This document shows, one piece after another, positions 13,512 to 42,894 of a DNA stretch of 64,000 nucleotides. Position 1 is the stretch's first letter; each line of letters begins with the position of its first letter. The stretch is from Chloroflexota bacterium. GTDB lineage: Bacteria; Chloroflexota; Anaerolineae; Anaerolineales; Anaerolineaceae. The notes below the pieces were generated by a model. It did no database searches. It was not told where the DNA came from and saw nothing but the letters and a program-made list of their open reading frames with translations. Both the position numbers and the translations under genes were made by a program. The stretch covers positions 2,207 through 66,206 of the forward strand of contig JAEKNU010000018.1 of NCBI GenBank assembly GCA_016838895.1. The letters run 5' to 3'.

Positions 13512-13518
13512 ATTTGTC

Positions 13519-14253
13519 ATGAAATGGATATACCTTTCTCCTCATCTGGATGATGCAGTTTATTCTTGTGGTGGCTTGATTCACCAACAAGTGCAGCAAG
13601 GCATAGATGTAGAAATATGGACTGTTTTTGCAGGTCAGTTTGATGCTGCAAACCTGACCCCGTTCGCAAAAGATATCCATCAGCGTTGGGGCACAGGTTT
13701 AGAGAGTATTACACTTCGCAAAGCAGAGGATCAGGAAGCTTGCACATTATTGGGAGTAAACACAAGTTATTTTGATTTTCAAGATGTAATCTATCGTTTC
13801 AAACCCGAAACTTCGCAAGCAGAAATTATTGAGAATGATGATTTATTCCGTGAGTATCATCCTGGCGATAATGCATTAATGGAAAGCATCACACAGGTTG
13901 TACGCCAGGCAGCACTGAGAATGCAACAGATACAGCTCTGTATCCCTTTGGGGTTGGGAAATCATATTGATCATCAAATTGTCCGCAGGTCTGCGGAAGC
14001 ACTGATAGATTCATATCCAATCCTCTATTATGCGGATTTCCCTTATGTAATCCGATCACAAGCACAGCCTGATGGTTTGCAACAGCGCCAGTTCGCGTTA
14101 TCTGAGGCAGATGTGGAAATCTGGTGTCAGGCGGTTGCGATCTATAAATCCCAAATAAGCACCTTCTGGGATGACGAAGCCCAAATTTGTGAAGAAATTT
14201 TTCCGTATTGGAAAAAGGGCGGGGGAAGCTGCTTGTGGTTTCACGAACAATGA
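13519..14253 (+). CDS. PIG-L family deacetylase (LmbE-like)
   Basis: ATG 13519 gives MKWIYLSPHLDDAVYSCGG (the PIG-L SPHxDD motif), and a later HIDH is present. The track start 13483 would overlap the previous gene. Confidence 0.75.
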   Translation: MKWIYLSPHLDDAVYSCGGLIHQQVQQGIDVEIWTVFAGQFDAANLTPFAKDIHQRWGTGLESITLRKAEDQEACTLLGVNTSYFDFQDVIYRFKPETSQAEIIENDDLFREYHPGDNALMESITQVVRQAALRMQQIQLCIPLGLGNHIDHQIVRRSAEALIDSYPILYYADFPYVIRSQAQPDGLQQRQFALSEADVEIWCQAVAIYKSQISTFWDDEAQICEEIFPYWKKGGGSCLWFHEQ

Positions 14254-14342
14254 TACAATTAAGTTGATATAGTTATACGCATAAAAACCTAATTTTACGG
14301 CCTTTTGTATGGACGTGGGATCAGGTATTCTATGCTATACTG

Positions 14343-14597
14343 GTGAAAAATATGGACAAACAATCAGTTTGGGCAAAATGGGCTCGAAACTTGCATCGTT
14401 GGGATATGGATGTTCCTGCTGAACTGTTCCTCAAATCGGTAGGACCACTGTCAATCGTCTTTGCACAAGGGTTGGTTTTGTTAAAACCGGTTATCAGCTC
14501 AAGCCCGGAATGGGATATCCTTACAGAGACCATCGAAAACGCTGACGAACGCAGGTTGTTCAGCCAACTACTGCACGAAGGAAATTGGGATGAATGA
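14343..14597 (+). CDS. small hypothetical protein (operon gene 1)
   Basis: 84 aa (GTG 14343, or ATG 14352) with one hydrophobic segment VGPLSIVFAQGLVLLKPVI. Its stop overlaps the next gene start by 8 nt. Confidence 0.5.
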   Translation: MKNMDKQSVWAKWARNLHRWDMDVPAELFLKSVGPLSIVFAQGLVLLKPVISSSPEWDILTETIENADERRLFSQLLHEGNWDE

Positions 14598-15354
14598 TGC
14601 AATGAGTACTTTTTCCGGCAATCTGATATTATTGGGCGCGATTTTATTGCTGATCATTTTTTCATTTCCGAATTTGATCAAGCATCGTCGCACGGTACGT
14701 CCCATCACGGCCATGACCAAAATGAAAAAAGCACTGGCTACTGCGGTTGAAGCTGGCAAAAGAATCCATATTTCAATGGGTAATGCCCCCCTGACAGAGA
14801 AAAATTCAGCGGCCAGTTATGTGGCCCTTAATACAATGAAGAAATCTGTACGCATGGCAACCCTGGGCGATCGTCCATTGATTGCTACCAGCGGTGATGG
14901 CCCACTTTCCTTATTAACACGTAATGGACTGGAATCAGCTTATCGGGAACGTAATGCTTCTGATCTATATGAAATTTCACAGGGTCGCCTGACTGGTTTG
15001 ACCCGTTTTTCCTATTTAGCCGGGACAATCTCGGTTATCAGTAATGAAAAAGTATATGCTAATCTGCTGCTTGGAGATTTAGGACCGGAAACTTTATTAA
15101 TGAGTCAAGCAGTACGGCGTAGTAATGGGCAGCTTTTGCCTGCCTCCAGTTCCATTCCGGCTCAGGCAGTGTTCTATGCAGAATCCGAAGACACCTTGAT
15201 TGGCGAGGATGTTTTTGCCGTAGCGGGGTATTTGCAGGAAGATCGTAATCAGCATGCTGGTTTGTGGGTGCAAGATATTCTGCGCTGGGTATTAATTGGC
15301 GTTATGCTGGTGGGTGGTATTATGAAAATTGCGCAATTGGTGATGGGAGGCTGA
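14590..15354 (+). CDS. hypothetical bitopic membrane protein (operon gene 2)
   Basis: 254 aa. TM helices at the N-terminus (LILLGAILLLIIFSFPNLI) and C-terminus (ILRWVLIGVMLVGGIMKIAQLV) flank a ~190-aa soluble domain. Confidence 0.6.
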   Translation: MNDAMSTFSGNLILLGAILLLIIFSFPNLIKHRRTVRPITAMTKMKKALATAVEAGKRIHISMGNAPLTEKNSAASYVALNTMKKSVRMATLGDRPLIATSGDGPLSLLTRNGLESAYRERNASDLYEISQGRLTGLTRFSYLAGTISVISNEKVYANLLLGDLGPETLLMSQAVRRSNGQLLPASSSIPAQAVFYAESEDTLIGEDVFAVAGYLQEDRNQHAGLWVQDILRWVLIGVMLVGGIMKIAQLVMGG

Positions 15355-15360
15355 TCGAAA

Positions 15361-15978
15361 ATGAAATCTCCTGTATCAACCGCAATTGCTATTGGGGTAG
15401 GATTCATGGTTTTGCTGGGTACGATTTTACCCATTCCAATCTTGAGCTCTATTCGTGAGGCATTGGTTAATTGGGCAGTGATTATTGCCGGTGTTGGGGC
15501 ATTGGTTGCTATTGTTCATTTTGTTCGCTTACATATTCGCAAAGTATCCCAAACGCGTGAACGAGACGGTTATAGTTTTCTACTGATTATTGCGTTTATG
15601 GGGACTTTCTTGTTTGGTGTGTTTTATACACCGGCCGATATTTATTTTCGTCCGATTGTAACCTCGATTCTGATGCCGATTGAAACCAGCCTGCTGGCTT
15701 TACTGGCTTTTTCGTTGGCACTGGCGGTGTTTCAGGTGGTTCGCAAACGAAGAGGATTTTCAACATTGTTATTCCTCATCAGTTTGATTTTTTTCCTGTT
15801 GTATTTCTCCAATGGATTACCTGTTCAATCTCAAATTCCGGCATTACGACAAGGCTTATTATTTTTGGAACGCCTGCCGATTGCCGGGGCACGCGGTTTA
15901 ATTTTAGGGATTGCATTGGGCAGTCTCGTAACCGGTATACGCATTCTTTTGGGAATGGACAGGCCGTATCAAGGATAG
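15361..15978 (+). CDS. hypothetical polytopic membrane protein (operon gene 3)
   Basis: 205 aa with about 5-6 hydrophobic helices. Gaps to the neighbouring genes are 6 nt and 3 nt. Confidence 0.6.
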   Translation: MKSPVSTAIAIGVGFMVLLGTILPIPILSSIREALVNWAVIIAGVGALVAIVHFVRLHIRKVSQTRERDGYSFLLIIAFMGTFLFGVFYTPADIYFRPIVTSILMPIETSLLALLAFSLALAVFQVVRKRRGFSTLLFLISLIFFLLYFSNGLPVQSQIPALRQGLLFLERLPIAGARGLILGIALGSLVTGIRILLGMDRPYQG

Positions 15979-15981
15979 CCG

Positions 15982-18900
15982 ATGGCAGAAAATCGCTGTA
16001 GTATGTGTGGAAAACCAAATGCGGCAGATGAATCCGTTTGTGAGCATTGCGGTGCACGTCTGACCCCGATGAAGCCCTCAAATGCAGGGAAATTCACCGG
16101 TGGTTTGAGCTGGCTGGATGCCTTTAGGGAAGAAACCGGTGGGCCAGATGAGGGTGAAACGTCAGTTGAGCAGGAAGCAAGCGCTGAACCCGCTGCAACA
16201 GAAGAAGATGATGAATCTCCGGAATGGTTGCAGAATATTCACCAACGTACCGATTCTGATGGTGCAGAAGAAGATGAGATCGAAGAGAATGATGAAATCC
16301 AACTGGAGGATCAATCTTTTGTTGATACACAGGCAGAGGGGGATGTTCCGGACTGGTTGAGGAATTTAAAAGGGGATGATGAACAGCCTGCTGTGGAAGA
16401 AGAAAAAAGTGAAGCAGTTGATGAAGATATACCACATTGGGCAGATGCATTAAGGACATGGGATGCAGAGGAAACCGCAGATGATGATTTTTCAGTTGAT
16501 GAAGAATCTGATGATGGGTTATTAGAAAGTAAACCAAGAGTGACTGAGTGGTTTAATCGAATTTTACCGGGGAATGAACAAGAATCGCATGAGGAAACTG
16601 AAGAGCAGGTACCTGCTGCCCAGGTTCCCCAGCAATCTCAACAACCATCCAATTTCATCGACGATAGTGCTTCGTCCGCATCTATGGATGAAGTTGAGAT
16701 TGAAAATTGGCAAGAAAGATCAGCAAAATTAACCTCTGTGACAGAATCATCAAGCGATGAAGAAGAAGTTCCATCCTGGTTGCAGGGAGATGAGGAAACC
16801 GCGGCTGAGGATAGTTCCCAGAGCGTATTAAACTGGTTGCAAAAACTGGATGAAGAAGAAGGCGGTAGACAAAAAGCTCGCTATTGGATGGGCGAAGTTG
16901 ATACGGGTGATTTACCAGCGGAACGAACACTTGATCCCCGTTTTGCAGAACCAGAAGAAAAAACAGAATCAGTTTATGATCCATTTTCAGAAGGGGATGC
17001 TGATAGTGCAGGTGCTACTCAGTTCTTTTCAGAAAGCGAATTAGCTGCTGATGACATGGATGAGGAATCACAAGAACCTGGTCATACCATGATCTTTGAG
17101 CAACCCGACGATGATGAAGCCATACCGGATTGGATGGCAGATCAACCTGGTGGTCCTGCAACCTTAAAAAGTGGAAGATCAGCTCACACAGTGGGACTAA
17201 GTGGTTTAGATGACGCTGATCTGGGTATGGATTTACCTGAAGAGGAGCAATCTCCCTGGGAGAAAGCAGCAAAGGAAGGAGATGTGCCCGCCACCTCAGA
17301 AAAACCAGCATCACCAAAGATGACAGCCGCATTAACCGGGCTTGATGAGGAAGAAAGTGGGGATCAAGAAGAAATTCCACCCTGGTTGCAAGATGTTGAA
17401 ACACCCACGACACCAGTTCGTAAAGAAACGCCAATCATGACCGCTGAATTAGGTGATTTTGATGATGAAGATTTAGGTGATGATACAACGGATGCTGAAA
17501 CTCCTCCATGGGTTCAGCAGACCCCCTCAGATCGTGAAGAAACAAAACCCAGAATGCCAATCATGACGGCTGAATTATCCGGTCTGGATGATGAAGATTT
17601 GGGGATGGACTTACCGGAGGATGAGATTCCTCCCTGGTTGAAAGAAGTTGAACAGCGTGAAGAAGATGAAAAGCCTGGCACACCCATCATGACGGCAGTT
17701 TTGGATGATCTGGATGAGGATGATGAGGATGAAGAAACACCTCCGTGGATTTTAGATACAGAAATTCCAGCTGATGAGAAGAAACAATCTTTAATGACTG
17801 CGGCAAAAAGCGATTTGGGTGAGACTTCATTTGAAACAGAAGAAGTGTCACCATGGATGCAGAATATCGATGAATCTACATCTGAAGCGAAGCCCGCACC
17901 AATGATGACGGCTGAGTTGTCCGACCTGGATGAAGGGAATGATGGGGATGATGAAGAGATTCCACCCTGGATGCAGGATGTCGAAGAGGTAGCAGTGCCT
18001 AAAAAAGGCACAACAATGATGACTGCGGCATTGACAGGATTAGATGATGAAGAATTAGACTCTGTGGATGATGCTGCATTGCCATGGATGCAGGAGATTG
18101 AGGAAGTTGTTCCGCCTGCAAAAAGTACACCCTTGATGACCGCGGCGCTGACAGGTTTAGATGATGAGGATCTGGGGACGGATGAAGAGCCGGCCTGGAT
18201 GAAGGATATCGAAGAAGTAACACGTCCATCAATCGAAACACCGTTAATGACTGCTGCATTAACTGATTTGGATGAGGAATTTGGTGACGCTGTCGCTGAT
18301 GATATTCCGGATTGGATGAAGAATATTGAAGAAACTCAGCAACCGCCAGAAACAACTCAATTAGAGCATGCTGAAGCCGTTGTCAAAGATGTGAAAACTT
18401 CCCCATCGCCTAAGCCTACGTTCATGGATGATTTGCAAGAGAAGAAAGAAAAATCTCCTGGCGAACCAACAATTGATGAAATGTATTCGGATCAATTGTT
18501 AACCACCGGGAAACTGAATGAAATGGTTGGCAAACCAGGTGCTGCAGGAGCAGTGGAACCAGAAGAGCAATCAATTGATGAAATGTTCTCAGATCAATTG
18601 TTGACTACCGGTAAACTTAATGAAATGGTAGGCCAACCGCCAACAGTAGATGATTCCGCAGATGATGAGAAATCCGTTGATGAGATGTACTCAGATCAAT
18701 TGCTGACGACTGGTATTTTGAATGAAATGGTAGGCCAACCGCCAACAGTGGATGATTCCGCAGATGATGAGAAATCCGTTGATGAGATGTACTCAGATCA
18801 ATTGCTGACGACTGGTATTTTGAATGAAATGGTAGGCCAACCGCCAACAGTGGATGATTCCGCAGATGATGAAAAATCTGTTGATGAGATGTACTCTGAT

Positions 18901-20793
18901 CAATTGCTGACGACTGGTATTTTGAATGAAATGGTAGGCCAACCGCCAACAGTGGATGATTCCGCAGATGATGAAAAATCTGTTGATGAGATGTACTCTG
19001 ATCAATTGCTGACGACTGGTATTTTGAATGAAATGGTAGGCCAACCGCCAACAACAGAAGATCAATCAGTTGACGAAGCATTCTCAGAGGATTTACTCAA
19101 TACCGGCCGTTTACGACAACTCTCTGGAGACTCAGAATCTGCTGACGATATGACAGTAGATGAAGAATTCTCCTCTGAATTATTGACCACAGGCCGGCTG
19201 CGCGATCTTTCTGAAGAGGATGCAGCGGCAACAAATGTAAGTGATGAGGAAGATTGGCTGGCCAGTTTTGCTGAAGAAGATTCAAAAGCATTAACAGCTG
19301 GTGATGATATGCTTGTCGGCGCAAGCGTCGCAGATGAAGATGAAGTACAAGATGAAATTGCCCCGACATCAGATATGCCGGTTTGGTTGACTGAATTAGA
19401 ACCGGAGGCAGTGGAAACAGAACCATCCGTAAAGCCAGCCTTTACGTTTGACGAAGAACCAGATATGACGGCCAAGGTGGAAGAATCTCATCCTTTTGCT
19501 GGGGATGATTTACCAAATTGGCTTTCTCCTGATGTTTGGCAGGCAAATGGTCAGAAGGATGAAACTGCCCCTGCCAAACCACAAGCAGGTGGAGTTCAGA
19601 ATATTCAATGGGAATTAGAAGGCTTGGAAAAAGGTGAATTGCCTTCCTGGCTTCAGCAGGTTAAACCAGATCAACTGGTTACCCAAAAACGATTAACGAC
19701 TGCAACTGCAGATGGCGAGACTCAGTCTGAAAAAGTAGGTCCATTAGCGGGATTGAGGGGTGTATTGCCGGCTCGTGATATGTTAACAAAGCACCGCAAA
19801 CCCCCGGTATATTCTGATCAAATCAATTTATCGGAACGGCAATCCAACCGTATGCAAGTGCTTTCCCGCATGATTGAAAGCGAAGCCAAGAATCGAATGT
19901 TAAAAGTTGGTGAGGAAAAGATTCCGTTCAATATGATGCGTATCATTTTTGCACTTATTTTAGTCATTGTAATGATTTTTCCATTGAGTGGTTTACTGCC
20001 AATTACTGGTAGTTTACCGTTTGCGGCAAGTGATCCGGTGATTGCTTTTTATAATGAAGTTGAACAATTTCCGGCAGATAGTTCTGTGCTGTTAGTGATG
20101 GATTTTGAAAGCGGCTATACTGCTGAAATGCGCAGTTCAATGGATGGCTTATTATTGCGATTGTATGAAAAGAATATTGATGTGGCCATGATTTCTACCT
20201 TACCAACCGGGCCAGTCATCGGTGAGGAAATTGCACAGGATATGTGGTTGCAATATTTCAATGTACATCCCGAAATCAATGTTGGCGATTATGAAACACG
20301 CGTATTAAATATGGGATATTTGCCAGGTGGTTCGGCTGCTATGCTGCAATTTGTGCGTTATCCGCAGCAGAGCGTTAAGTATGGTTTCCGCTATGAAAAA
20401 GAACCGACCTCTGTTTGGCAGTCTCAGGTATTATCTGATATTCAGAGCACCAATGATTTTGCAGGTGTGGTGGTCATTACAGATTCGGCGAATGTAAGCC
20501 GTAATTGGATTGAACAATCCACACTGTATTCCCTGGATAATATTCTCTTCATTACCAGTGCGCAAACCTATCCGCTGATTTTACCGTACTGGCAATCCGG
20601 TCAGGTAAAGGGCCTAATTGCCGGAATTTATCAGGGATATACTTACCGAACATTATTAAATCAATCCACTGGATTGGCTGCCCAATGGTATTCATATCAA
20701 TTTGGTATGAATCTGGTGACCATTGTTGTTATTCTACTGACTGTTGTCTTTATCATTCGTAATGCTATACCACGCAGGAACACGTCGCGTTAA
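15982..20793 (+). CDS. giant acidic Zn-ribbon / PxW[LM]-repeat protein with C-terminal membrane-flanked domain (operon gene 4)
   Basis: 1603 aa. It starts with an N-terminal CSMCGKPNAADESVCEHCGARL zinc ribbon, followed by ~1200 aa that are very rich in D/E. This part carries about 20-25 copies of [PDE]-x-W-[LM] motifs (IPPWLQDV, IPDWMKNI and similar), ~10 MTAELSGLDDEDLG units and 8 DEMYSDQLLTTGxLNEMVG units. A TM helix (MMRIIFALILVIVMIFPLSGLL), a ~330-aa domain and a terminal TM helix plus RRNTSR follow. Confidence 0.8.
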   Translation: MAENRCSMCGKPNAADESVCEHCGARLTPMKPSNAGKFTGGLSWLDAFREETGGPDEGETSVEQEASAEPAATEEDDESPEWLQNIHQRTDSDGAEEDEIEENDEIQLEDQSFVDTQAEGDVPDWLRNLKGDDEQPAVEEEKSEAVDEDIPHWADALRTWDAEETADDDFSVDEESDDGLLESKPRVTEWFNRILPGNEQESHEETEEQVPAAQVPQQSQQPSNFIDDSASSASMDEVEIENWQERSAKLTSVTESSSDEEEVPSWLQGDEETAAEDSSQSVLNWLQKLDEEEGGRQKARYWMGEVDTGDLPAERTLDPRFAEPEEKTESVYDPFSEGDADSAGATQFFSESELAADDMDEESQEPGHTMIFEQPDDDEAIPDWMADQPGGPATLKSGRSAHTVGLSGLDDADLGMDLPEEEQSPWEKAAKEGDVPATSEKPASPKMTAALTGLDEEESGDQEEIPPWLQDVETPTTPVRKETPIMTAELGDFDDEDLGDDTTDAETPPWVQQTPSDREETKPRMPIMTAELSGLDDEDLGMDLPEDEIPPWLKEVEQREEDEKPGTPIMTAVLDDLDEDDEDEETPPWILDTEIPADEKKQSLMTAAKSDLGETSFETEEVSPWMQNIDESTSEAKPAPMMTAELSDLDEGNDGDDEEIPPWMQDVEEVAVPKKGTTMMTAALTGLDDEELDSVDDAALPWMQEIEEVVPPAKSTPLMTAALTGLDDEDLGTDEEPAWMKDIEEVTRPSIETPLMTAALTDLDEEFGDAVADDIPDWMKNIEETQQPPETTQLEHAEAVVKDVKTSPSPKPTFMDDLQEKKEKSPGEPTIDEMYSDQLLTTGKLNEMVGKPGAAGAVEPEEQSIDEMFSDQLLTTGKLNEMVGQPPTVDDSADDEKSVDEMYSDQLLTTGILNEMVGQPPTVDDSADDEKSVDEMYSDQLLTTGILNEMVGQPPTVDDSADDEKSVDEMYSDQLLTTGILNEMVGQPPTVDDSADDEKSVDEMYSDQLLTTGILNEMVGQPPTTEDQSVDEAFSEDLLNTGRLRQLSGDSESADDMTVDEEFSSELLTTGRLRDLSEEDAAATNVSDEEDWLASFAEEDSKALTAGDDMLVGASVADEDEVQDEIAPTSDMPVWLTELEPEAVETEPSVKPAFTFDEEPDMTAKVEESHPFAGDDLPNWLSPDVWQANGQKDETAPAKPQAGGVQNIQWELEGLEKGELPSWLQQVKPDQLVTQKRLTTATADGETQSEKVGPLAGLRGVLPARDMLTKHRKPPVYSDQINLSERQSNRMQVLSRMIESEAKNRMLKVGEEKIPFNMMRIIFALILVIVMIFPLSGLLPITGSLPFAASDPVIAFYNEVEQFPADSSVLLVMDFESGYTAEMRSSMDGLLLRLYEKNIDVAMISTLPTGPVIGEEIAQDMWLQYFNVHPEINVGDYETRVLNMGYLPGGSAAMLQFVRYPQQSVKYGFRYEKEPTSVWQSQVLSDIQSTNDFAGVVVITDSANVSRNWIEQSTLYSLDNILFITSAQTYPLILPYWQSGQVKGLIAGIYQGYTYRTLLNQSTGLAAQWYSYQFGMNLVTIVVILLTVVFIIRNAIPRRNTSR
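17176..18350 (+). repeat. about 10 degenerate 38-42-aa coding repeats (x-MTAELSGLDDEDLG-acidic-IPPW[LM]Q-x)
   Basis: Read from the translation: SGLDDADLGMDLPEEEQSPWEKA; KMTAALTGLDEEESGDQEEIPPWLQDV; PIMTAELGDFDDEDLG...TPPWVQQ; PIMTAELSGLDDEDLGMDLPEDEIPPWLKEV; and so on to LMTAALTDLDEEFGDAVADDIPDWMKNI. Confidence 0.8.
18673..19053 (+). repeat. 102-bp in-frame tandem repeat, 3.7 near-identical copies (core of an 8-unit array 18469-19215)
   Basis: Units start at 18673, 18775, 18877 and 18979, and each encodes SVDEMYSDQLLTTGILNEMVGQPPTVDDSADDEK. Copies 1-2 share gagaaatccgtt...tactcagat and copies 3-4 share gaaaaatctgtt...tactctgat, an AABB pattern. More diverged units flank both sides. Confidence 0.9.
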
Positions 20794-20808
20794 AGGATCA
20801 CGTTGTTT

Positions 20809-21489
20809 ATGAATGCTGAATTTCTTTGGACATTACTAGGATTGCTGCTTACGCTGATTGTGCTTAGCTATCTGTTTGGTGATCACGTGTTCTTCCGCCT
20901 GGTTAGCTATATGTTTGTGGGTTGTGCAGCAGGATATGTGGCCGTGATTGTAATTTATCAGGTTATATTACCGCGCCTGGCCTGGCCGCTGCTATCCGGG
21001 ACGAGTGGTGAACGCATTCTTGCATTGGGTGGTCTGGTGTTATCAATTTTGCTATTTAGTCGATTGGTGCCCGGTCTCTCCCGTGCCGGTAATATTTCGT
21101 TGGCATATCTAGTCGGTGTTAGTTCAGCGGTGATTATCAGCGGCGCCATTTACGGTACGATCATACCGCAGGTTAATGCAGTTACCACAACCATTGATTC
21201 TGGCTTGCACGGCACAACGGTTTTGTATCGTATCCTGGAAGGCATAACATTCCTGATTGGCAGTGTTTCCTCGTTGGCTTTTTTCCATTATGGGACGAGA
21301 GCAAAAAGCCTCGATAAAAAACGATTGCCGATTATTGAATTTTTTGCCCGGATTGGTTCCGGATTTATCTCCATTACATTTGGGGCAGTATTTGCTGGTG
21401 TTTATGCTGCAGCTTTATCTGCTCTTATGGATAGATTGGTTTTCATTCTCAATTTTTTCCAAAAAATTTTACCGGGTGTGTTTAGCTGA
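20809..21489 (+). CDS. hypothetical polytopic membrane protein (operon gene 5)
   Basis: About 226 aa from ATG 20809 (the track uses TTG 20803) with ~6 hydrophobic helices. The stop TGA shares its A with the next ATG (TGATG at 21487-21491). Confidence 0.6.
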   Translation: MNAEFLWTLLGLLLTLIVLSYLFGDHVFFRLVSYMFVGCAAGYVAVIVIYQVILPRLAWPLLSGTSGERILALGGLVLSILLFSRLVPGLSRAGNISLAYLVGVSSAVIISGAIYGTIIPQVNAVTTTIDSGLHGTTVLYRILEGITFLIGSVSSLAFFHYGTRAKSLDKKRLPIIEFFARIGSGFISITFGAVFAGVYAAALSALMDRLVFILNFFQKILPGVFS

Positions 21490-23219
21490 TGACAACAAAG
21501 CCAATGAAAGAGACCTTATCCCTGCTGGCCATTGACCTCGGAACAGTGTATACGAGAGTTTTCCTGTTTGATGTTGTGGAGGGTCAATATAGTTTTATAG
21601 CCAGTGGTGCCGCGCCCAATACGATGAGTAAACCCTATTGTGATATCAATGAGGGTTTGCACAGAGCTTTTACGCAACTGGAAGAAAAAACTGGTCGCAG
21701 TATTATTGATTCTCAGGCAAAATTGATGTTTCCCTCAACAGGCGAGGGTATAGGTATTGATCGTCTGGTATTAACCTATTCCGCTGGTCCTGATGTGCGT
21801 ATGATTCTGGTTGGACTACTATCTGAAGTTTCACTGGACAGTTTAAGAGTTGTCGCCAATTCGGTTTATGGCACGGTTGTCGATGCCATTGGTGTGGGTG
21901 ATCCACGAAATATTGATGAGCAAATTGATACTGTTTTACGGCTTGATCCACAAATTGTGGTTTTTGCCGGGGGAACAGAGCAGGGCGCCAGCCGTTCCGT
22001 GTTACGCATGGCAGAAATGATTTCCATCATTTTAAAAGTGGTACCCGAAGATAAAAGACCGGAAATACTATATTGTGGGAATGCAGCTTTGGCGGAAAAA
22101 ATTAAAGAAGGTTTGGAGCATTGGACGCCGGTAGCTGTCTCGAAAAATATTCGGCCTTCTTTGGATGAAGAAGCCTACATGGATGCGCAAGCTTTGCTAT
22201 CCCAAATGGTATTATTCCAGAAAAGTAAAAAAATTGGCGGTATTGAAGAAATCTCGCAGATTTGCAGTACCGAACCGGAATCAACTGCAATGGGTTTCCA
22301 TCGCATTATCCGATATTTGGGTACCGAGAGTAAAGAGATGCGTTGTGTGCTTGGCGTAGATTTGGGCGCTTCCCATGCGACAATGGCATTTGCGGATCGA
22401 ACACAATCCATTATGGATGTATTTGATTTTGGGCTGGGCACTTCGATGTCAATGATTGCCAGGAAGGCCAGTCTGGAACACTTGTATCAATGGATTACAC
22501 ATGATATTTCACCTGGAGCAGTGCAGGACTATATCTGGCAGAAAAAGTTATTACCGGGGCAAATCCCTTCCAGTACGGCTGCATTGGATATTGAGCAGGC
22601 GGCAGCACGAGCAGCTTTGCAGATGATGATGGCGCATATGCAGAAACGTTGGCCGGAAGAGAAAGCTAATTATGACCCCATTCTTGTTTCAGGCGCAGTT
22701 TTCGGAAATGTTGCTCATCCATCAGATAGTTTACTGATGGTGTTGGATGGTATTCAACCCGTGGGTATAACGACTGTAACACTAGATACCAACGGCATCA
22801 CCGGCACATTGGGTACTGCTGCAAAGATACATCCGGCGATTCCTGTACAGGTTCTGGAGTCGGGTGCATTTTTAAATTTAGGAACTGTGATTTGTCCGCT
22901 TAGTAATGAAAAAATTGGAAAGCCGGTTGTGCGTATTCGATATGAAACCGAAGATGGGCAAAAGGATGACATTAAAGTGATGAAAGGAACCGTTCAACAT
23001 ATTCCCATCACACAGGGAAAGGCAGTGCGTATTATGGTTTCAGGTATTGGACGCACTACTGTGGATCCTTTGGTTGGGAAAGGCATAGCTGCTTTCAGAA
23101 CCATTGGTGGTGTTTGCGGTCTTGTGATAGATGCGCGAGGTAGGCCGTTCGATTTGCCTGTTGATTTACAGGAGCGCCGGGAGTTGTTACTCTCCTGGAA
23201 GAATGCTTTAAAGACATAA
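21489..23219 (+). CDS. GlmL/MutL-family actin-fold (ASKHA) ATPase-like protein (operon gene 6)
   Basis: 576 aa. LLAIDLGTVYTRVFLFD is a phosphate-1 DxGxxxT motif. YSAGPDVRMILVGLLSEVSLDSLRVVA and LDPQIVVFAGGTEQGASRSVL parallel the GlmL blocks SSAAGGLRM..GL..ELT..AA and PDIILLAGGTDGG. A second VLGVDLGASHATMAF motif is also present. Confidence 0.65.
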   Translation: MTTKPMKETLSLLAIDLGTVYTRVFLFDVVEGQYSFIASGAAPNTMSKPYCDINEGLHRAFTQLEEKTGRSIIDSQAKLMFPSTGEGIGIDRLVLTYSAGPDVRMILVGLLSEVSLDSLRVVANSVYGTVVDAIGVGDPRNIDEQIDTVLRLDPQIVVFAGGTEQGASRSVLRMAEMISIILKVVPEDKRPEILYCGNAALAEKIKEGLEHWTPVAVSKNIRPSLDEEAYMDAQALLSQMVLFQKSKKIGGIEEISQICSTEPESTAMGFHRIIRYLGTESKEMRCVLGVDLGASHATMAFADRTQSIMDVFDFGLGTSMSMIARKASLEHLYQWITHDISPGAVQDYIWQKKLLPGQIPSSTAALDIEQAAARAALQMMMAHMQKRWPEEKANYDPILVSGAVFGNVAHPSDSLLMVLDGIQPVGITTVTLDTNGITGTLGTAAKIHPAIPVQVLESGAFLNLGTVICPLSNEKIGKPVVRIRYETEDGQKDDIKVMKGTVQHIPITQGKAVRIMVSGIGRTTVDPLVGKGIAAFRTIGGVCGLVIDARGRPFDLPVDLQERRELLLSWKNALKT

Positions 23220-23262
23220 ACATTGGTAGAAATCTTGCAATAAGTATTTTGGGAAAACAAGT

Positions 23263-24318
23263 ATGTTAGCGAAACAACCCACACTCATTCGACCTTTGGT
23301 AAGAATAACCCGAAAGCGTACACTATCGCATGCGGGTGAGGTTTTGGTATCTGCCGGTCAGGAAGTAAACGGTAGTGAAGTGATTGCACAAACCAATTTG
23401 CATGATCATCATTTATTGGTGGATGTAAAACAGGCTCTGCAGCTAAAGAAAGTAGAAGAAGTTACAAAAATACTAAATTGCAAATTAGGTGAGCGGCTGG
23501 AAGAAGGCGATATTATTGCTGAAACCGGCGGCATATTTAATCGTGTGGTACGAGCACCCATGAATGGTGTTGTAGCTGTTATCTCTGGCGGAAAAGTGAT
23601 ACTAGAGGTACAGGGCAGGCGCGAGCAGCTAAAAGCAGGTTACAGCGGCATTGTTGTTGAAGTGATGCATCGCAGCGGCGCTGTTATTCAATGTCAAGGT
23701 GCGCTGGTTCAGGGTGTTTGGGGTAATCATCAGAGTGGATCCGGATTGTTAATGCAGATCGGAAATGATGCATCTTCAGAACTGGATCCGAAGTTTTTAT
23801 CCGTTGATTTGCGAGGAGCAGTTTTGTTTGCAGGAACATTGCGACATGTTGATGTTTTGCGAAATTTGGCCAGTATGAATATACGTGGGTTAATTTTGGG
23901 AACAATGTCCGCGGCGTTAATTCCGATGGCAATGGATTTAAAATTTCCTGTACTATTAACGGATGGATTTGGTAACATAGGCATGAATCTTGCAGCATAT
24001 CAGATACTGAATACGAACGTTAATCGGGAGTTAAACCTGATTGCCAACCCGCCAAATGAATTAACGGGCAGTAAACCGGAAGCATTTATACCATTACCGG
24101 CAGACGGAGAAGAACCGAATGACGTACTCAGTTTAAAACCTGGCAGAATGGTACGTATCCTGTCTTATCCAAATCAGGGACAGATTGGTGAAATTCTGCG
24201 TATTCATACGGGTAAAGTGAAATTGTCCAATGGTATTTTAGCGCGAGCCGCTACGATACAATTGACAGATAAAAAACAAATTACGGTACCTCTTGAAAAT
24301 CTGGATTTGCTGGAATAA
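23263..24318 (+). CDS. hypothetical protein with lipoyl/biotinyl-like barrel-sandwich hybrid N-terminus and SH3/KOW-like C-terminus (operon gene 7)
   Basis: 351 aa. VLVSAGQEVNGSEVIAQT ... EGDIIAETGG...VRAPMNGVV resembles hybrid-barrel motifs. The C-terminus is LKPGRMVRILSYPNQGQIGEILRI...KVKL. Confidence 0.45.
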   Translation: MLAKQPTLIRPLVRITRKRTLSHAGEVLVSAGQEVNGSEVIAQTNLHDHHLLVDVKQALQLKKVEEVTKILNCKLGERLEEGDIIAETGGIFNRVVRAPMNGVVAVISGGKVILEVQGRREQLKAGYSGIVVEVMHRSGAVIQCQGALVQGVWGNHQSGSGLLMQIGNDASSELDPKFLSVDLRGAVLFAGTLRHVDVLRNLASMNIRGLILGTMSAALIPMAMDLKFPVLLTDGFGNIGMNLAAYQILNTNVNRELNLIANPPNELTGSKPEAFIPLPADGEEPNDVLSLKPGRMVRILSYPNQGQIGEILRIHTGKVKLSNGILARAATIQLTDKKQITVPLENLDLLE

Positions 24319-24350
24319 GCAATTCCTGAACATGCAGTAGGAGAAGCGCT

Positions 24351-24986
24351 ATGTCTAATTTTGATGATAATTTATTTGAAGATTTTGATGCATTCGAGGG
24401 TTACGAGGACGATCAGCCCGCCGGTAAAGCGCCAAAACCCAAAAGCAGCAACCGAAATTTCTGGATTGCGATTGGTGTGATTGGTGTCTTTGTGCTATTA
24501 ATTGTTGCAGCCATGGCAGTTTATATGCTGGTGATTTATCCTCAACAGCGTAGTGAGCAGGTACAACAGGCTGCCCAAATCAATGCGCAAAATACAATGA
24601 CTGTTCAAGCTGCCACCGAAATGGCTCTGGCACAGGCATTATTACAGACCCCCAGTGCAACGATGGTTGTAGATACTGAAGAACCGACCAATACGCCGGT
24701 AGTCGTTTTCCCAACTGCAACTGAAGAACCGACTATGGCAGCCGAAGAAATGGAAGCTGCTGCAGGCGGTGATCTGACCTACAGGACGCAAACCGTGGCC
24801 GCCTTACTTACCCTGGCTGCTGGCGGCAGCGTGGAAACGGGAACGCCGGATGGGCAAACAACAACAGCTTTACCGACGGCTGGTTTTGCGGATGAAGTAG
24901 GTTTGCCTTCGTTGTTTGGCATGGGCGTTTTATTAATTGGTTTGGTATTTGTCGTAAGGCGTTTACGTACTGCTGCATCTTCGTAA
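24351..24986 (+). CDS. doubly anchored Ala/Thr/Glu-rich protein with LPTAG-type C-terminal signal (operon gene 8)
   Basis: 211 aa. It has an acidic N-terminus (DDNLFEDFDAFEGYEDD), a TM helix (FWIAIGVIGVFVLLIVAAMAVYMLVIY) and an A/T/E-rich region. The C-terminus is LPTAG (24870-24884), a hydrophobic stretch LFGMGVLLIGLVFVV, then RRLR. Confidence 0.55.
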   Translation: MSNFDDNLFEDFDAFEGYEDDQPAGKAPKPKSSNRNFWIAIGVIGVFVLLIVAAMAVYMLVIYPQQRSEQVQQAAQINAQNTMTVQAATEMALAQALLQTPSATMVVDTEEPTNTPVVVFPTATEEPTMAAEEMEAAAGGDLTYRTQTVAALLTLAAGGSVETGTPDGQTTTALPTAGFADEVGLPSLFGMGVLLIGLVFVVRRLRTAASS

Positions 24987-25065: not shown

Positions 25066-25098
25066 AACAGCGGCTCTATACGGGCCGCTGTTTTGTTT
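25066..25098 (+). terminator. rho-independent terminator of the eight-gene operon
   Basis: 9-bp stem aacagcggc / gccgctgtt with a 9-nt loop, followed by ttttgttt. Confidence 0.7.
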
Positions 25099-25154: not shown

Positions 25155-26615
25155 CTATGCTACATTAGAAGCTACTTCCTGACCAAAACCCATTAAGGCT
25201 TCTACCATTTCCGGGGAACGGCCTTCCGCATAAACTCGTAATACCGGTTCAGTACCCGATGGTCGAATGAGCAGCCAGGAATCATCGGAGAGGATGTATT
25301 TGATGCCATCTATATCGATGATTTCAGTAACGGACTCGCCACCGATAGATGCAGGTGCATTGTTTTTTAGTTTGCGCACCATAGCATCTTTGGCAACAGG
25401 GTGCTTCAGGCGCATATCTTTGCGTTTGTAAACTGCCGGGCCAACCTCATTTAGCAATTGTTCTACTAATTCATATAGAGGTGTGCGGTAATAGGAAATG
25501 ATTTCGGTAAGCAGTAATCCGATCAGCACACCATCACCTTCAGGAATATGGCCTTTGAATGAAATACCACCAGATTCTTCGCCGCCGATGAGAATATCTT
25601 CGTTGAGCATGTAATCAGAGATATGGTTAAAACCCACGGGCGTTTCATACAGTTTCAATCCGTATTTCAATGCCAAACGATCCAGCATGCGGGAAGTAGA
25701 AATGGTGCGTACAACTGCGCCGCTTAATCCGCGCACTTCTACCAGATACTTAAGCGCCAATGCCATAATTTTGTGCGGATCGACGAAGTTTCCGCGCCCA
25801 TCCATGGCACCGATACGGTCGGCATCCCCATCGGTAGCCAGACCAAAATCACCTTTGCCCATACTGATGGTTGTGGCCAGTGCATCCAGATAATGTCCAA
25901 TCGGTTCAGGGTGGATGCCGCCAAATCCGGGGTTCAGATCACCGCGAATTTCTTCCACTTCGCAACCCGTGCCCTGTAAAATGCCACGGATTACACCACG
26001 ACCGGATCCATACATGGAATCAATCACGATGCGAGGTTTGGCGTCAGCGATTACATCCATATCAATCAAATTGCGTAAATGGTCATGATAGGCAGGTATG
26101 GGGTTAAAGGTGGTAATTTGCCCATTATTTTTTGCGATCTGAAAATCCATCAGGTTTGGACCGCGCCCTTGCAGCTCATTATCATTCAGGTATACTTCCA
26201 CGCGATCACACTGTTCTGGTGAGGCGGCGTTACCGCAGGTGGATTTTAATTTAACACCGTTATAACGCGGTGCATTATGTGAGGCAGTGATCATGACACC
26301 AGCTTTGGCGCCCATATTGCGTACCGCAAAGGAGATGGCCGGGGTAGGCGCATCGGCCTGGCTAAGCATGACTGAAAAATCATTACCGGCCAATACTCTG
26401 GCGACTTCCCGGGCATATCGGTCGGATAGAAAACGAGTATCAAAACCAACGACCATCTTATGATCATCAGCAACGACATCTTTTGCGCCCCCATTGTTCC
26501 AGCTGGGCGAAATGACAGCGTCTGCGATGGCCTGGGTGACCAGGCGGAGATTGTAGAAAGTGAACGTATCAGAGATGACGGCTCTCCAACCATCAGTACC
26601 GAAATTTATAGGCAT
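25155..26615 (-). CDS. phosphoglucomutase/phosphomannomutase family protein
   Basis: 486 aa with the active-site loop TASHNAPRYNGVKL, the metal loop ATDGDADR and GGEESGG. Confidence 0.85.
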   Translation of the reverse strand: MPINFGTDGWRAVISDTFTFYNLRLVTQAIADAVISPSWNNGGAKDVVADDHKMVVGFDTRFLSDRYAREVARVLAGNDFSVMLSQADAPTPAISFAVRNMGAKAGVMITASHNAPRYNGVKLKSTCGNAASPEQCDRVEVYLNDNELQGRGPNLMDFQIAKNNGQITTFNPIPAYHDHLRNLIDMDVIADAKPRIVIDSMYGSGRGVIRGILQGTGCEVEEIRGDLNPGFGGIHPEPIGHYLDALATTISMGKGDFGLATDGDADRIGAMDGRGNFVDPHKIMALALKYLVEVRGLSGAVVRTISTSRMLDRLALKYGLKLYETPVGFNHISDYMLNEDILIGGEESGGISFKGHIPEGDGVLIGLLLTEIISYYRTPLYELVEQLLNEVGPAVYKRKDMRLKHPVAKDAMVRKLKNNAPASIGGESVTEIIDIDGIKYILSDDSWLLIRPSGTEPVLRVYAEGRSPEMVEALMGFGQEVASNVA

Positions 26616-27851: not shown

Positions 27852-28318
27852 ATTCTTAAACTCGCTACTAGCCGCTGTGGATTTTCTAAACAATCAAAAG
27901 CTGCATAGATGTTTGGCAACAATAAATCGGCTGCCATTAGGGTTTCTTTGGCAATGCCTTCTTTAGATAATATGCCAATACCGATGGCAGCTATGTGCAG
28001 CATACCTGCGTCATTGGCACCTTGTCCGATAGCGACTACAGTATCCGGATTTAAATTTTCTACAAATCTGGTTTTCTGCTGCACTTCATCTCCGGGGGTT
28101 AAGAGATCAGCCGGAAATCCAAGGGCTTTATCTATTGTATCTTGTTTTCCGTGTGTATTGGCAGTGATTAAGTGTACTTTCACTTGCTTTCTCAAGGTTT
28201 GTATTCTATCCGGGATATCGTCCAGCAACCTGCCATCCAGAGCCAGGGTTCCATTTACGTCAAAGACGACATGTTCAATCTGAACCTTTCCTTTTCCGAG
28301 AATGTGCAGGGAAATCAT
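27848..28318 (-). CDS. HAD-superfamily protein resembling a free-standing P-type ATPase P-domain (COG4087-like)
   Basis: 156 aa. FDVNGTLA matches the DxxGTL motif, and AIGQGANDAGML...MAADLLL parallels the P-type ATPase GDGxND...AADxxL motif. Confidence 0.65.
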   Translation of the reverse strand: MISLHILGKGKVQIEHVVFDVNGTLALDGRLLDDIPDRIQTLRKQVKVHLITANTHGKQDTIDKALGFPADLLTPGDEVQQKTRFVENLNPDTVVAIGQGANDAGMLHIAAIGIGILSKEGIAKETLMAADLLLPNIYAAFDCLENPQRLVASLRI

Positions 28319-42874: not shown

Positions 42875-42894
42875 AAAGGCAATACAAAATAACC

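Follow-up and report, generated by a model that had tools for sequence, protein, structure and literature searches.

A conserved eight-gene operon in Anaerolineae encodes an uncharacterised membrane protein cassette and an ASKHA-family ATPase

An eight-gene operon in a member of the Anaerolineae (Chloroflexota) encodes membrane proteins and an ATPase that recur from Chloroflexota to Firmicutes, Zixibacteria and archaea but match no described system, and it therefore probably specifies an undescribed cell-envelope machine whose function can for now only be inferred. The operon was found in a 64,000-nucleotide stretch of contig JAEKNU010000018.1 (assembly GCA_016838895.1), hereafter the window, where eight tightly packed genes (g1 to g8) lie on the forward strand between 14343 or 14352 and 24986 (Table 1). 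Comparative data show that the ancient unit is a four-gene membrane cassette (g2, g3, the C-terminal module of g4, and g5), which is joined by g1, g6 and g7 in Anaerolineae and some Bacillota, whereas two parts, the zinc ribbon plus ~1,300-aa acidic arm of g4 and the whole of g8, were found only in Anaerolineae.

Table 1. Features of the operon in window coordinates (aa, residues of the encoded protein; TM, transmembrane).
Position	Strand	Feature	Description
14333..14341	+	Extended -10-like element	TGCTATACT, immediately upstream of g1; implies a leaderless or very short-leader mRNA if ATG 14352 is the start
14352..14597	+	g1	Small helical protein (81 aa; 84 aa from GTG 14343) with one moderately hydrophobic stretch
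14590..15354	+	g2	DUF6754 protein: N-terminus outside, TM helix, cytoplasmic Rossmann-like alpha/beta domain, C-terminal TM helix; first cassette gene
15361..15978	+	g3	Polytopic membrane protein (about 6 TM) with conserved C-terminal block AG-x-RG...LR...G-x-DR-x-Y; second cassette gene
15982..20793	+	g4	1603-aa fusion of a cytoplasmic Zn ribbon and acidic motif-bearing arm to the third cassette subunit
15997..16050	+	g4 Zn ribbon	CSMC...CEHC, aa 6-23
16099..19671	+	g4 acidic arm	Disordered-looking; net charge about -266 (over aa 41-1200); about two dozen W-centred motifs, [DE][DE][DE]-[LIVT]-P-D-W-L-x-x-[LIF], plus two further repeat classes (P-[IL]-M-T-A-x-L-x-x-L-D-D-E and DEMYSDQLLTTGxLNEMVG)
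18575..19053	+	g4 tandem repeat	Recent expansion: 102-nt unit, 4.7 copies, 96% identical (Tandem Repeats Finder)
19639..19851	+	g4 juxtamembrane block	Conserved, cytoplasmic (LPxWL..., GPLAGLxGVLP, RKPPxYS, SERQ)
19942..20757	+	g4 C-terminal module	Third cassette subunit: TM (aa 1321-1339), extracytoplasmic alpha/beta-type domain of about 235 aa, TM (aa 1574-1592), basic tail
20803..21489	+	g5	Polytopic membrane protein (about 6 TM) with conserved N-terminal motif [FY]S[YF]L[FY]-x-[DE]NP-x-[FY]R; fourth cassette gene
21489..23219	+	g6	GlmL/MutL-branch ASKHA ATPase (aa 13-457) with conserved C-terminal domain of about 115 aa (GGxCGxxxDARGRP)
23263..24318	+	g7	Soluble four-domain protein: lysine-less barrel-sandwich hybrid, second beta domain, small alpha/beta domain, C-terminal KOW/SH3-like barrel
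24351..24986	+	g8	Acidic cytoplasmic tail, TM (aa 39-57), Ala/Thr/Pro-rich extracytoplasmic stretch, C-terminal sorting signal with TM segment (aa 183-201)
24870..24983	+	g8 LPXTG-type signal	LPTAG here; family consensus T-A-L-P-x-T-G-F-A-D-E-V-G-L-P, then hydrophobic helix and RRLR
25066..25098	+	Intrinsic terminator	Closes the block

The initial annotation of the window, which described eight coupled same-strand genes closed by a clean terminator, was correct as an observation. The junctions between successive genes are -8, 6, 3, 9 (15 if g5 starts at ATG 20809), -1, 43 and 32 nt. The terminator was the best hit of a terminator scan (25066-25092, an 11-bp stem with 7 G-C pairs followed by a T run), and a second, convergent terminator at 25127-25107 serves the opposite-strand gene. 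A -35/-10 scan showed no excess of promoters inside the block (12 found against 24.9 expected), and the putative promoter element upstream of g1 is conserved base for base in the two closest relatives (loci L001 and L002). The protein descriptions of the initial annotation also held, with three corrections. First, the real start of g1 is probably ATG 14352, as the GTG at 14343 is lost through a 1-nt indel in L001 and L002, whose orthologues are 81 aa. Second, g2 crosses the membrane twice and its central domain is cytoplasmic. Third, what had been taken for a second membrane anchor at the C-terminus of g8 is, in the family, an LPXTG-type sorting signal.

The arrangement is more than chance. 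All eight genes are present in 59 of 80 Anaerolineae loci, 58 of them in the window order, and in every incomplete locus but three, which lack only the small divergent g1, the missing genes lie beyond a contig end; median intergenic gaps run from -4 to 32 nt. Beyond the Anaerolineae, the order g1-g2-g3-g4C-g5-g6-g7 (g4C being the C-terminal module of g4) is present in Alkalicella caledoniensis, Anaerobranca gottschalkii and Bacillota MAGs at 21-28% identity with E values of 2e-13 to 3e-68. The four-gene cassette occurs alone in Bacillota and in a Methanomethylicia archaeon with archaellum genes nearby, and it keeps its order in Zixibacteria and Cloacimonadota. Across 89 further loci the cassette order never varies, two or three tandem copies occur in Zixibacteria-type contigs, and g1-g6-g7 is adjacent in 6 of the 24 loci with at least 4 kb of flank on both sides. 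No other neighbour recurs, so the unit is self-contained. Lack of synteny in other genomes had been named beforehand as an outcome that would refute the proposal, and these data decisively exclude that outcome.

Within the cassette, g2 matches DUF6754 (Pfam PF20539, 80.3 bits, E 1.7e-22), and its AF2 model (pLDDT 88.9, pTM 0.81) predicts a five-stranded Rossmann-like domain between two TM helices, with no significant PDB neighbour; a literature search found no paper that names DUF6754. Relatives of g2 with an N-terminal signal peptide plus FN3 or PQQ-propeller domains ahead of the first TM helix fix its topology. The polytopic g3 is 28% identical to its Alkalicella orthologue and gave no consistent Pfam or PDB hit, while g5 gave none and is not detectably related to g3 (hhalign probability 0.3%). 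The C-terminal module of g4 is homologous to a stand-alone 274-aa protein of Alkalicella (E 2e-13) and to a 258-aa protein of locus L082 (E 3e-16), without a Pfam or PDB sequence match, and its orientation is supported by the cytoplasmic Zn ribbon and arm before its first TM helix and by its basic C-terminal tail.

The accessory genes are g1, g6 and g7. In other phyla g1 travels with g6-g7 or g2: g1-like ORFs of 90-98 aa precede DUF6754 in Alkalicella, Anaerobranca and Bacillota MAGs, and g1-like ORFs lie next to g6-g7 in metagenome loci. g6 matches Pfam PF13941 MutL (172.5 bits, E 1.8e-50), its DxG and GG phosphate-loop residues are invariant in 17 orthologues, and it is 27% identical over its full length to the Alkalicella orthologue. 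However, the Anaerolineae g6 has drifted from the motif forms seen in Bacillota (DLGTVYTR against DCGSTTTK; GGTEQG against GGIDGG), hence its activity is not certain. g7 always lies directly downstream of g6, the two overlap or abut in every lineage, and the g6 stop overlaps the g7 start in two Bacillota loci (L081 and L085). Pfam hits of g7 to DUF2118, RnfC_N and KOW are weak, but its AF2 model (pLDDT 88.6) bears out the barrel-sandwich-hybrid and KOW assignments, although Foldseek gave only local KOW matches (TM-score normalised to the query at most 0.26). Overall, searches of Pfam, NCBIfam, PADLOC and PDB sequences, together with Foldseek on the two confident models, place no member in a characterised pathway, transporter, secretion or defence system.

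The Anaerolineae-specific parts are a long extension of g4 and the whole of g8. The Zn ribbon scores below the curated Pfam cut-offs (Zn_Ribbon_1 and zinc_ribbon_3, E 2e-4 to 6e-4), but a CxxC...CxxC pair is present in 55 of 61 orthologues. The length of the acidic arm varies with overall protein length (638-1473 aa among orthologues), and its W-centred motif occurs 233 times in the arms of the 61 orthologues against 1.2 expected from shuffles. The motif resembles the FtsZ conserved C-terminal peptide (CCTP) consensus D/E-I/V-P-X-F/Y-L-R/K (bioRxiv 10.1101/2023.08.29.555414), but only partially: W replaces F/Y, K/R follows in only about 24% of copies, and the motifs are internal rather than C-terminal. 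The juxtamembrane block of g4 was found only in the Anaerolineae orthologues examined and is absent from the 258-280-aa forms in Bacillota and the archaeon. g8 is absent from all loci outside Anaerolineae; 34 of 43 orthologues hit the NCBIfam model TIGR01167 LPXTG_anchor (best E 1.1e-4), though the window copy reads LPTAG rather than LPXTG and a crude motif scan found no sortase gene in the window.

The interpretation offered by the initial annotation, in which the acidic repeat region is a cytoplasmic scaffold presenting short linear motifs to the ATPase or the hybrid-barrel protein, is only partly supported. The block is indeed conserved and tightly coupled, lies outside characterised systems and carries a genuine, strongly enriched short linear motif. 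However, Bacillota keep g1-g7 with a 272-278-aa g4 that has no Zn ribbon and no repeats, so the scaffold is a lineage-specific addition and motif presentation to g6 or g7 cannot be the core mechanism. Furthermore, the core cassette often occurs without any adjacent ATPase and in tandem copies, and the term "actin-fold" is right only at superfamily level, as g6 belongs to the GlmL/hydantoinase branch, with no FtsA or MreB hit for the window g6 and only sub-threshold ones for its Alkalicella orthologue.

Our preferred reading, to which we give a probability of roughly 0.4, is that the operon encodes an energy-coupled transport or assembly device for an envelope-side substrate. In this view the four-subunit core has a folded domain on each face of the membrane joined by about 16 TM helices, and g1, g6 and g7 form a cytoplasmic module in which g7 is the constant partner of the ATPase. 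ATP binding and hydrolysis by g6-g7 would be transmitted to the core, most plausibly by docking on the cytoplasmic domain of g2, and would drive or gate a trans-membrane step that serves the outer domain of g4; one ATPase module could serve several paralogous cassettes where these are arrayed in tandem. In Anaerolineae the arm, with 10-25 copies of the FtsZ-tail-like [DE]-Φ-P-D-W-L motif, would concentrate a motif-binding partner at the complex, and g8 would tie the complex covalently to the wall. We regard the operon structure, the synteny across phyla, the modular make-up, the topologies, the modelled folds of g2 and g7, the motif enrichment and the sorting signal as established by the analysis, whereas every physical contact, the ATPase activity, the substrate and the partner of the motifs are inferred, without support from experiment, complex prediction or co-purification. 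Most cassettes (18 of the 24 well-flanked loci) have no adjacent g6-g7, such that either the core works without the ATPase or the ATPase is encoded elsewhere, and either way the case for an ATP-driven core is weakened. GlmL-type proteins are thought to be chaperones or reactivases for B12 enzymes, not motors, and the hydantoinase branch contains small-molecule kinases and carboxylases, so g6 could be an enzyme rather than an energiser. Nothing in the data identifies a substrate, and no residue pattern typical of a channel or carrier was recognised.

An alternative that we consider possible but unlikely is a solute uptake system, in which g3 and g5 (about 12 TM together) form the pathway, the outer domain of g4 is a membrane-tethered substrate-binding or gating domain, the Rossmann-like domain of g2 is a cytoplasmic regulator, and g6, as an ASKHA protein of the hydantoinase/kinase branch, traps or activates the imported compound metabolically together with g7, tandem cassettes being paralogues for different substrates. 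Two polytopic subunits plus a tethered extracytoplasmic alpha/beta domain resemble TRAP or TTT-type systems, tandem paralogous cassettes share one g6-g7, and the Alkalicella g6 hits Hydantoinase_A at E 2e-5. The carriers named here are mostly from anaerobic lineages, several of them described as proteolytic or fermentative, and peptidase and beta-eliminating-lyase genes lie beside some cassettes. However, no transporter family is hit by any subunit or profile, neighbouring genes do not recur, and large FN3 and propeller ectodomains on g2, together with the giant cytoplasmic scaffold and wall-anchored g8 in Anaerolineae, are unusual for a nutrient transporter.

Less likely still is the scaffold model of the initial annotation taken as a cytoskeletal or divisome-linked system, in which g6 acts like FtsA, PilM or MreB on the membrane complex and the repeats of g4 recruit or sequester proteins that bind the FtsZ tail (or g6 itself), coupling septation or wall growth to g8. 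In its favor, g6 is in the ASKHA superfamily, the motif resembles the FtsZ CCTP, which binds FtsA, SepF and ZipA, g8 is predicted to be wall-anchored, and most cultured Anaerolineae are described as multicellular filaments. In four Zixibacteria-type contigs the cassette array also lies close to, and convergent with, the ftsZ end of the cluster (one of them, L110, shows ftsZ-ftsA-ftsQ-murC), but this neighborhood is seen in one lineage only. Moreover, the repeats and g8 were found only in Anaerolineae while g6-g7 and the cassette are far older, the branch assignment of g6 speaks against it, and an archaeon with no adjacent ATPase genes keeps the cassette.

It is very unlikely that the database annotation is right, i.e., that g6, which matches PF13941 and whose homologues are named "glutamate mutase L" or "methylaspartate mutase", is a reactivating chaperone for a B12-dependent mutase with incidental neighbours. 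g6 scores far below the cut-offs of the NCBIfam GlmL equivalog (67.5 bits against 475), the Or-4 model (51.5 against 600) and the TIGR01319 subfamily (39.7 against 204), and no GlmS, GlmE or other mutase gene lies next to g6 in any of the more than 90 g6-bearing loci, where its constant neighbours are g5 and g7. Finally, a mobile or defence island or a chance juxtaposition of unrelated genes, which the uncharacterised proteins and the repeat-rich giant protein of variable repeat number might suggest, is effectively refuted by the synteny across phyla, there being no PADLOC hit, a GC content like that of the surroundings, and the same housekeeping flanks across Anaerolineae (a phosphoglucomutase-family gene at about 70% identity and a DUF389/SH3 protein).

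Eight same-strand ORFs (g1 to g8, in operon order) lie in the window exactly where the initial annotation placed them, with junctions of -8, 6, 3, 9 (15 with the alternative start), -1, 43 and 32 nt, and the observation of a tightly packed eight-gene block holds. The block is closed by the best terminator in the region, which is followed by a T run, and a second terminator faces it and serves the convergent phosphoglucomutase-family gene. A -35/-10 scan gives fewer promoter-like sites inside the block than shuffles do (12 against 24.9). An exact copy of g6 is on record from an Anaerolineaceae MAG. The gene model requires one correction: in the two closest relatives (about 80% protein identity) the -10-like element TGCTATACT and the ATG downstream of it are conserved, whereas a 1-nt indel removes the upstream GTG and their g1 is 81 aa. 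Hence g1 most likely starts at the ATG, 10 nt after the -10-like element, which implies a leaderless or nearly leaderless message. A second conserved extended -10-like element, TGATACAAT, overlaps the stop codon of the upstream PIG-L-family gene, and the whole intergenic region is 87% identical among three relatives, which is high for non-coding DNA when the proteins are about 80% identical.

Coordinates of features in the window and in two loci from the metagenome survey (L110, a Zixibacteria-type contig; L093, a Clostridiales-type contig)
Sequence	Position	Strand	Feature
Window	12423-13511	+	TM-anchored protein with no Pfam hit; overlaps the next gene by 29 nt
Window	13483-14253	+	PIG-L-family (GlcNAc deacetylase-type) protein
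Window	14250-14262	+	Second extended -10-like element, TGATACAAT
Window	14333-14341		-10-like element, TGCTATACT
Window	14343		GTG, lost in the two closest relatives
Window	14352		ATG, most likely start of g1
Window	18575-19053	+	102-nt tandem repeat inside g4
Window	25066-25092		Terminator closing the block
Window	25127-25107		Facing terminator of the convergent gene
Window	25155-26615		PGM/PMM gene
Window	26670-27893	-	DUF389/SH3 membrane protein
Window	29380-30036		Bac_transf gene
Window	42886-43138	+	T-box leader, Rfam RF00230
L110	12353-18221	-	Triple DUF6754 cassette array close to, and convergent with, ftsZ
L093	10747-16991	+	Cassette with a duplicated ATPase module

The g2 protein is a divergent member of Pfam PF20539 (DUF6754), scoring 80.3 bits against a gathering threshold of 27, whereas relatives in other phyla score 378-405 bits; the family has no known function, and no paper in the literature searched mentions it. 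The AF2 model (pLDDT 88.9, pTM 0.81) shows a TM helix, a five-stranded Rossmann-like alpha/beta domain and a C-terminal TM helix, and a Foldseek search of the PDB returned only generic Rossmann-like matches and no significant neighbour. g3 and g5 are membrane proteins of about six helices each that are not detectably related to each other (probability 0.3% in a profile-profile comparison), and g2 against the C-terminal module of g4 (g4C) gave only a weak hint (probability 10.7%, E 0.003 over beta1-alpha1-beta2), in a test of whether the cassette arose by internal duplication. g4 has four parts: an N-terminal Zn ribbon, a roughly 1,160-aa acidic region with a net charge of about -266, a conserved juxtamembrane block, and a module consisting of a TM, a 235-aa domain and a second TM. 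Neither the window copy of this module nor 54 orthologues hit any Pfam family or PDB sequence. Of the eight proteins, scanned against Pfam, NCBIfam and PADLOC, only g2 (DUF6754) and g6 (MutL) gave significant matches; Pfam scans of 30-55 orthologues each of g3, g4C and g5 revealed no recurring family, the Bacillota and archaeal versions added nothing apart from a much stronger MutL hit, and PDB sequence-profile searches with g2, g3, g4C, g5, g6 and g7 returned nothing apart from weak KOW hits for g7.

The g6 protein matches Pfam PF13941 (MutL, ASKHA superfamily) over aa 13-457 with 172.5 bits against a threshold of 27 (E 1.8e-50), and the Bacillota orthologue matches the model end to end at 427 bits. 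The ASKHA phosphate-binding loops are kept, with D16, G18, D291, G293, G161 and G162 invariant or nearly so in 17 orthologues. GlmL/MutL is the accessory protein of coenzyme-B12-dependent glutamate mutase, but g6 falls far below the cut-offs of the NCBIfam GlmL equivalog NF040745 (67.5 bits against 475) and of the TIGR01319 subfamily (39.7 bits against 204), fails that of the Or-4 model, and has an extra conserved C-terminal domain of about 115 aa. No GlmS or GlmE gene lies next to g6 in the window, in the 80 Anaerolineae loci, or in the Bacillota and metagenome loci with g6; it is instead always followed by g7, usually with a membrane cassette alongside.

The g7 protein (AF2 pLDDT 88.6) is predicted to have four domains: a lysine-less barrel-sandwich hybrid, a second beta domain, a small alpha/beta domain and a KOW/SH3-like barrel. 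Foldseek finds only local matches to the KOW part (NusG, Spt5), and the TM-score normalised to the query never exceeds 0.26 against any PDB chain. The first domain gives weak hits to RnfC_N (the N-terminal barrel-sandwich hybrid domain of RnfC/NqrA) and to archaeal DUF2118, and about a third of its homologues carry a precomputed PF13375 hit, but there is no Fe-S or flavin motif and the rest of the protein differs. We considered g7 as a biotin or lipoyl carrier and as a B12-binding protein; the lipoyl/biotinyl lysine position reads E-T-G-G, with no lysine, and the DxHxxG motif is absent.

The g8 protein has an acidic cytoplasmic tail, a TM and an Ala/Thr/Pro-rich outer stretch, and its family shares a conserved T-A-L-P-x-T-G-F-A-D-E-V-G-L-P block followed by a hydrophobic helix and an Arg-rich RRLR tail, as in sortase-anchored LPXTG surface proteins. 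Of 43 orthologues, 34 hit the LPXTG_anchor model TIGR01167, although the window copy reads LPTAG and a 9-residue spacer (FADEVGLPx) precedes the helix. The N-terminus looks like an uncleaved signal anchor behind the cytoplasmic tail rather than a cleaved signal, so that the product would be tethered to both membrane and wall; no TLxTC-containing ORF, and hence no sortase candidate, was found within the 64-kb window, which leaves out the rest of the genome, and the literature on sortases in Chloroflexi yielded only an old general remark. Weak GltJ and FliL hits cover only the TM and low-complexity region and were disregarded.

Within the Anaerolineae the operon is strongly conserved. A profile of g6 recovered 263 relatives in the species-representative genome collection, and the best 80 are all Anaerolineae-type, among them isolates of Ornatilinea apprima, Anaerolinea thermolimosa and Levilinea saccharolytica and an Anaerolinea thermophila MAG. 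All eight genes are present in 59 of these 80 loci, 58 in the window order, with median gaps from -4 to 32 nt, and every incomplete locus is cut by a contig end except three that lack only the small, divergent g1. One contig binned as Chthonomonas calidirosea (Armatimonadota; DYKI01000078.1) carries the Anaerolineae-type cluster, including g8 and a g4 with Zn ribbon and PDWL motifs, with only g1 undetected and a g6 41% identical to the window copy; it is probably a mis-binned Chloroflexota contig. The convergent phosphoglucomutase-family gene (about 70% identity) and the downstream DUF389/SH3 membrane protein are conserved as well, and the PIG-L-family gene lies just upstream of g1 in about half of the Anaerolineae loci, so that the block sits in stable core genome. 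The DUF389/SH3 protein comprises a DUF389 membrane domain, a Pro/Thr/Ser-rich linker and a C-terminal bacterial SH3 domain and, like g8, looks envelope-exposed. Together with the upstream TM-anchored and PIG-L-family genes, the glycan-related PGM/PMM and Bac_transf genes downstream give a weak cell-envelope theme.

The key result came from beyond the Anaerolineae. A phmmer search with g2 against 1.84 billion representatives found 1,131 clusters (at 50% identity) at E <= 1e-3, and a distant hit taken as the next query showed DUF6754 proteins in Bacillota (Alkalicella caledoniensis, Anaerobranca gottschalkii and a Negativicutes MAG) and in a Methanomethylicia archaeon. In Alkalicella, Anaerobranca and a Bacillota MAG the neighbourhood reads: a g1-like ORF of 90-98 aa, DUF6754, a 205-aa protein, a 272-275-aa protein, a 209-aa protein, a MutL protein of 594-608 aa and a 371-372-aa protein. 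BLASTP identifies the last six as g2, g3, g4C alone, g5, g6 over its full length and g7 over its full length (identities of 21-28%, E values of 2e-13 to 3e-68), and these loci have no Zn ribbon, no acidic repeats and no g8. In the archaeon, whose contig carries archaellum genes, and in several Bacillota contigs only the four membrane genes (g2, g3, g4C and g5) are present.

A metagenome scan with a DUF6754 profile matched more than 598 stretches, and in the 80 loci kept, plus those found earlier, the order g2-g3-g4C-g5 never varies. Arrays of two or three tandem cassettes occur; judging from the names attached to near-identical proteins, the three-cassette type belongs to Zixibacteria and other loci to Cloacimonadota, 'Ca. 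Xenobium' and Clostridiales. Duplication is not only tandem, as two further loci (L091 and L127) carry two cassettes in inverted orientation on one contig, convergent and divergent, respectively. The g1-g6-g7 genes lie beside the cassettes, before or after them, in 6 of the 24 loci with at least 4 kb of flank on both sides, and in some cases one such set lies next to two or three paralogous cassettes. The ATPase module can be duplicated too: in the Clostridiales-type contig L093 the cassette is followed by g6, g7, two g1-like ORFs and a second g6 paralogue, and databases name both g6 copies 'methylaspartate mutase'. Across 89 diverse loci no other neighbour recurs, apart from what are probably common ABC-type genes in 9 loci. 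In these lineages g2 often carries a signal peptide plus FN3 or PQQ-propeller domains ahead of its first TM, which fixes the topology with the N-terminus outside and the DUF6754 domain in the cytoplasm; the g4 module has the opposite arrangement, with its folded domain outside.

The acidic arm of g4 was found only in the Anaerolineae form. Across 62 g4 proteins, 782 Trp sites in the arm give the logo [ED][ED][ED]-[LIVT]-P-D-W-L-x-x-[LIF], and the pattern [DE][ILVT]P.[WFY][LMIV] occurs 233 times in 61 orthologues against 1.2 expected from composition-preserving shuffles (9 in the window arm against 0.03 expected). No other ORF in the window has two or more P-x-W-Φ motifs. Arm length (protein length 638-1473 aa) correlates with motif number (r = 0.63), and a 102-nt unit repeated 4.7 times at 96% identity, encoding near-identical 34-aa SVDEMYSDQLLTTGILNEMVGQPPTVDDSADDEK units, points to a very recent, ongoing expansion; this repeat class and the P-[IL]-M-T-A-x-L-x-x-L-D-D-E class were not seen in the six more distant orthologues compared. 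The array is a clean natural example of a multivalent short-linear-motif scaffold in bacteria with repeat number still evolving. The motif shares the acidic-aliphatic-Pro-x-aromatic-Leu pattern of the FtsZ conserved C-terminal peptide (CCTP), D/E-I/V-P-X-F/Y-L-R/K, which binds FtsA, SepF and ZipA (bioRxiv 10.1101/2023.08.29.555414). The resemblance is a lead rather than a result, as five of seven positions match, Trp replaces Phe or Tyr, a basic residue follows in only about a quarter of copies (about 24%), and the motifs are internal and multicopy on a membrane protein rather than a single C-terminal tail. No ftsZ gene was found in the window. In four Zixibacteria-type contigs (L110, L111, L134 and L153) the triple cassette array lies close to, and convergent with, ftsZ; in L110 the neighbours read ftsZ-ftsA-ftsQ-murC and the gap is about 390 nt, in L134 and L153 one ORF intervenes, and the FtsZ tail there is DDWEVPTFLRKQ. 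This is seen in one lineage only and may be coincidence.

Comparison with described systems placed the operon in none of them. As in PilM-PilN-PilO, GspL-GspM, FtsA and MreB-RodZ-MreCD, a predicted cytoplasmic actin-superfamily ATPase is encoded with small membrane proteins, and g4 in Anaerolineae has a cytoplasmic domain, a long linker, a TM and an outer domain, as RodZ does. However, the window proteins gave no sequence or profile hit to those families, the window g6 gave no family-level match to FtsA, MreB, ParM or PilM (the Alkalicella orthologue gives only sub-threshold FtsA, E 0.027, and MreB-like_C, E 0.0076, hits), g6 is on a different ASKHA branch, and the membrane part is a four-subunit cassette that also exists without the ATPase. 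The position of one g1-g6-g7 set next to two or three paralogous cassettes recalls the shared energising module of group II ECF transporters, and the extracytoplasmic alpha/beta domain recalls TRAP or TTT systems with a binding protein, but there is no ABC ATPase, no EcfT or S component and no DctQ/M or TctA/B signature, and the predicted ATPase is ASKHA, not P-loop. No subunit, as a single protein or in the orthologue-by-orthologue scans of g3, g4C and g5, consistently matched a Pfam or NCBIfam model of ABC, ECF, TRAP, TTT, T2SS, T4P, T7SS, Rnf/Nqr or sporulation systems; Rnf-Nqr (PF02508) reached E 0.11 in only 1 of 31 g3 orthologues. The literature searched held nothing relevant on DUF6754, PF13941, PDWL, TIGR01319 or DUF2118.

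The eight-gene operon is the Anaerolineae elaboration of a widespread, uncharacterised, modular membrane system, and the finding is broader than the initial annotation could see. The operon structure, its synteny across phyla and its modular make-up are shown by the sequence data, whereas the function is inferred, as are nucleotide hydrolysis by g6, every contact among the subunits, and any binding partner of the motifs. The cassette places a folded domain on each side of the membrane, joined by about 16 helices, which is the layout of a device that moves something, or passes a conformational signal, across the membrane. g6 and g7 always occur as a pair, with overlapping or abutting genes, and where present they usually lie next to cassettes, sometimes one pair next to several. 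We therefore favor an ATP-coupled transport or assembly machine (probability about 0.4) in which g6-g7, perhaps with g1, would engage the cytoplasmic domain of g2, and to which the Anaerolineae would have added a multivalent recruiting arm and a wall tether. The main weakness of any ATP-driven model is that most cassettes have no adjacent ATPase. In a bolder form, which we consider unlikely but not excluded, the cassette would be an ancient, previously unrecognised four-subunit membrane machine shared by bacteria and archaea and optionally driven by the GlmL-branch ASKHA ATPase with its partner g7, a new class of energy-coupled trans-envelope device, wired in filamentous Anaerolineae to the division machinery through a multivalent mimic of the FtsZ tail and to the cell wall through a sortase-anchored tether.

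Among the alternatives, a plain solute-uptake system with metabolic trapping is less likely than the favored machine. The interpretation in the initial annotation, a divisome- or cytoskeleton-linked scaffold, is only partly supported and, as a whole, less likely still. A glutamate-mutase accessory system and a defence island can be set aside, the former because the family cut-offs are failed and no mutase lies nearby in any locus, the latter because PADLOC returned zero hits and the flanks are conserved housekeeping genes.

If the favored view is right, a membrane complex found in at least five bacterial phyla and in archaea has gone unnoticed, and its only enzyme-like part is mis-annotated in databases as 'glutamate mutase L' or 'methylaspartate mutase'. 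Working out its function would add a new type of ATPase-membrane coupling, since ASKHA ATPases are not known to energise polytopic membrane complexes, would correct a widespread annotation error, and would give a handle on envelope biology in Chloroflexota, whose envelope and filament organisation are poorly understood. Cultured carriers—Alkalicella caledoniensis, Anaerobranca gottschalkii, Ornatilinea apprima, Levilinea saccharolytica and Anaerolinea thermolimosa—make the question testable. Elsewhere in the window, a T-box leader scoring 97.3 bits against a gathering score of 93 is the only Rfam match in the 64 kb.
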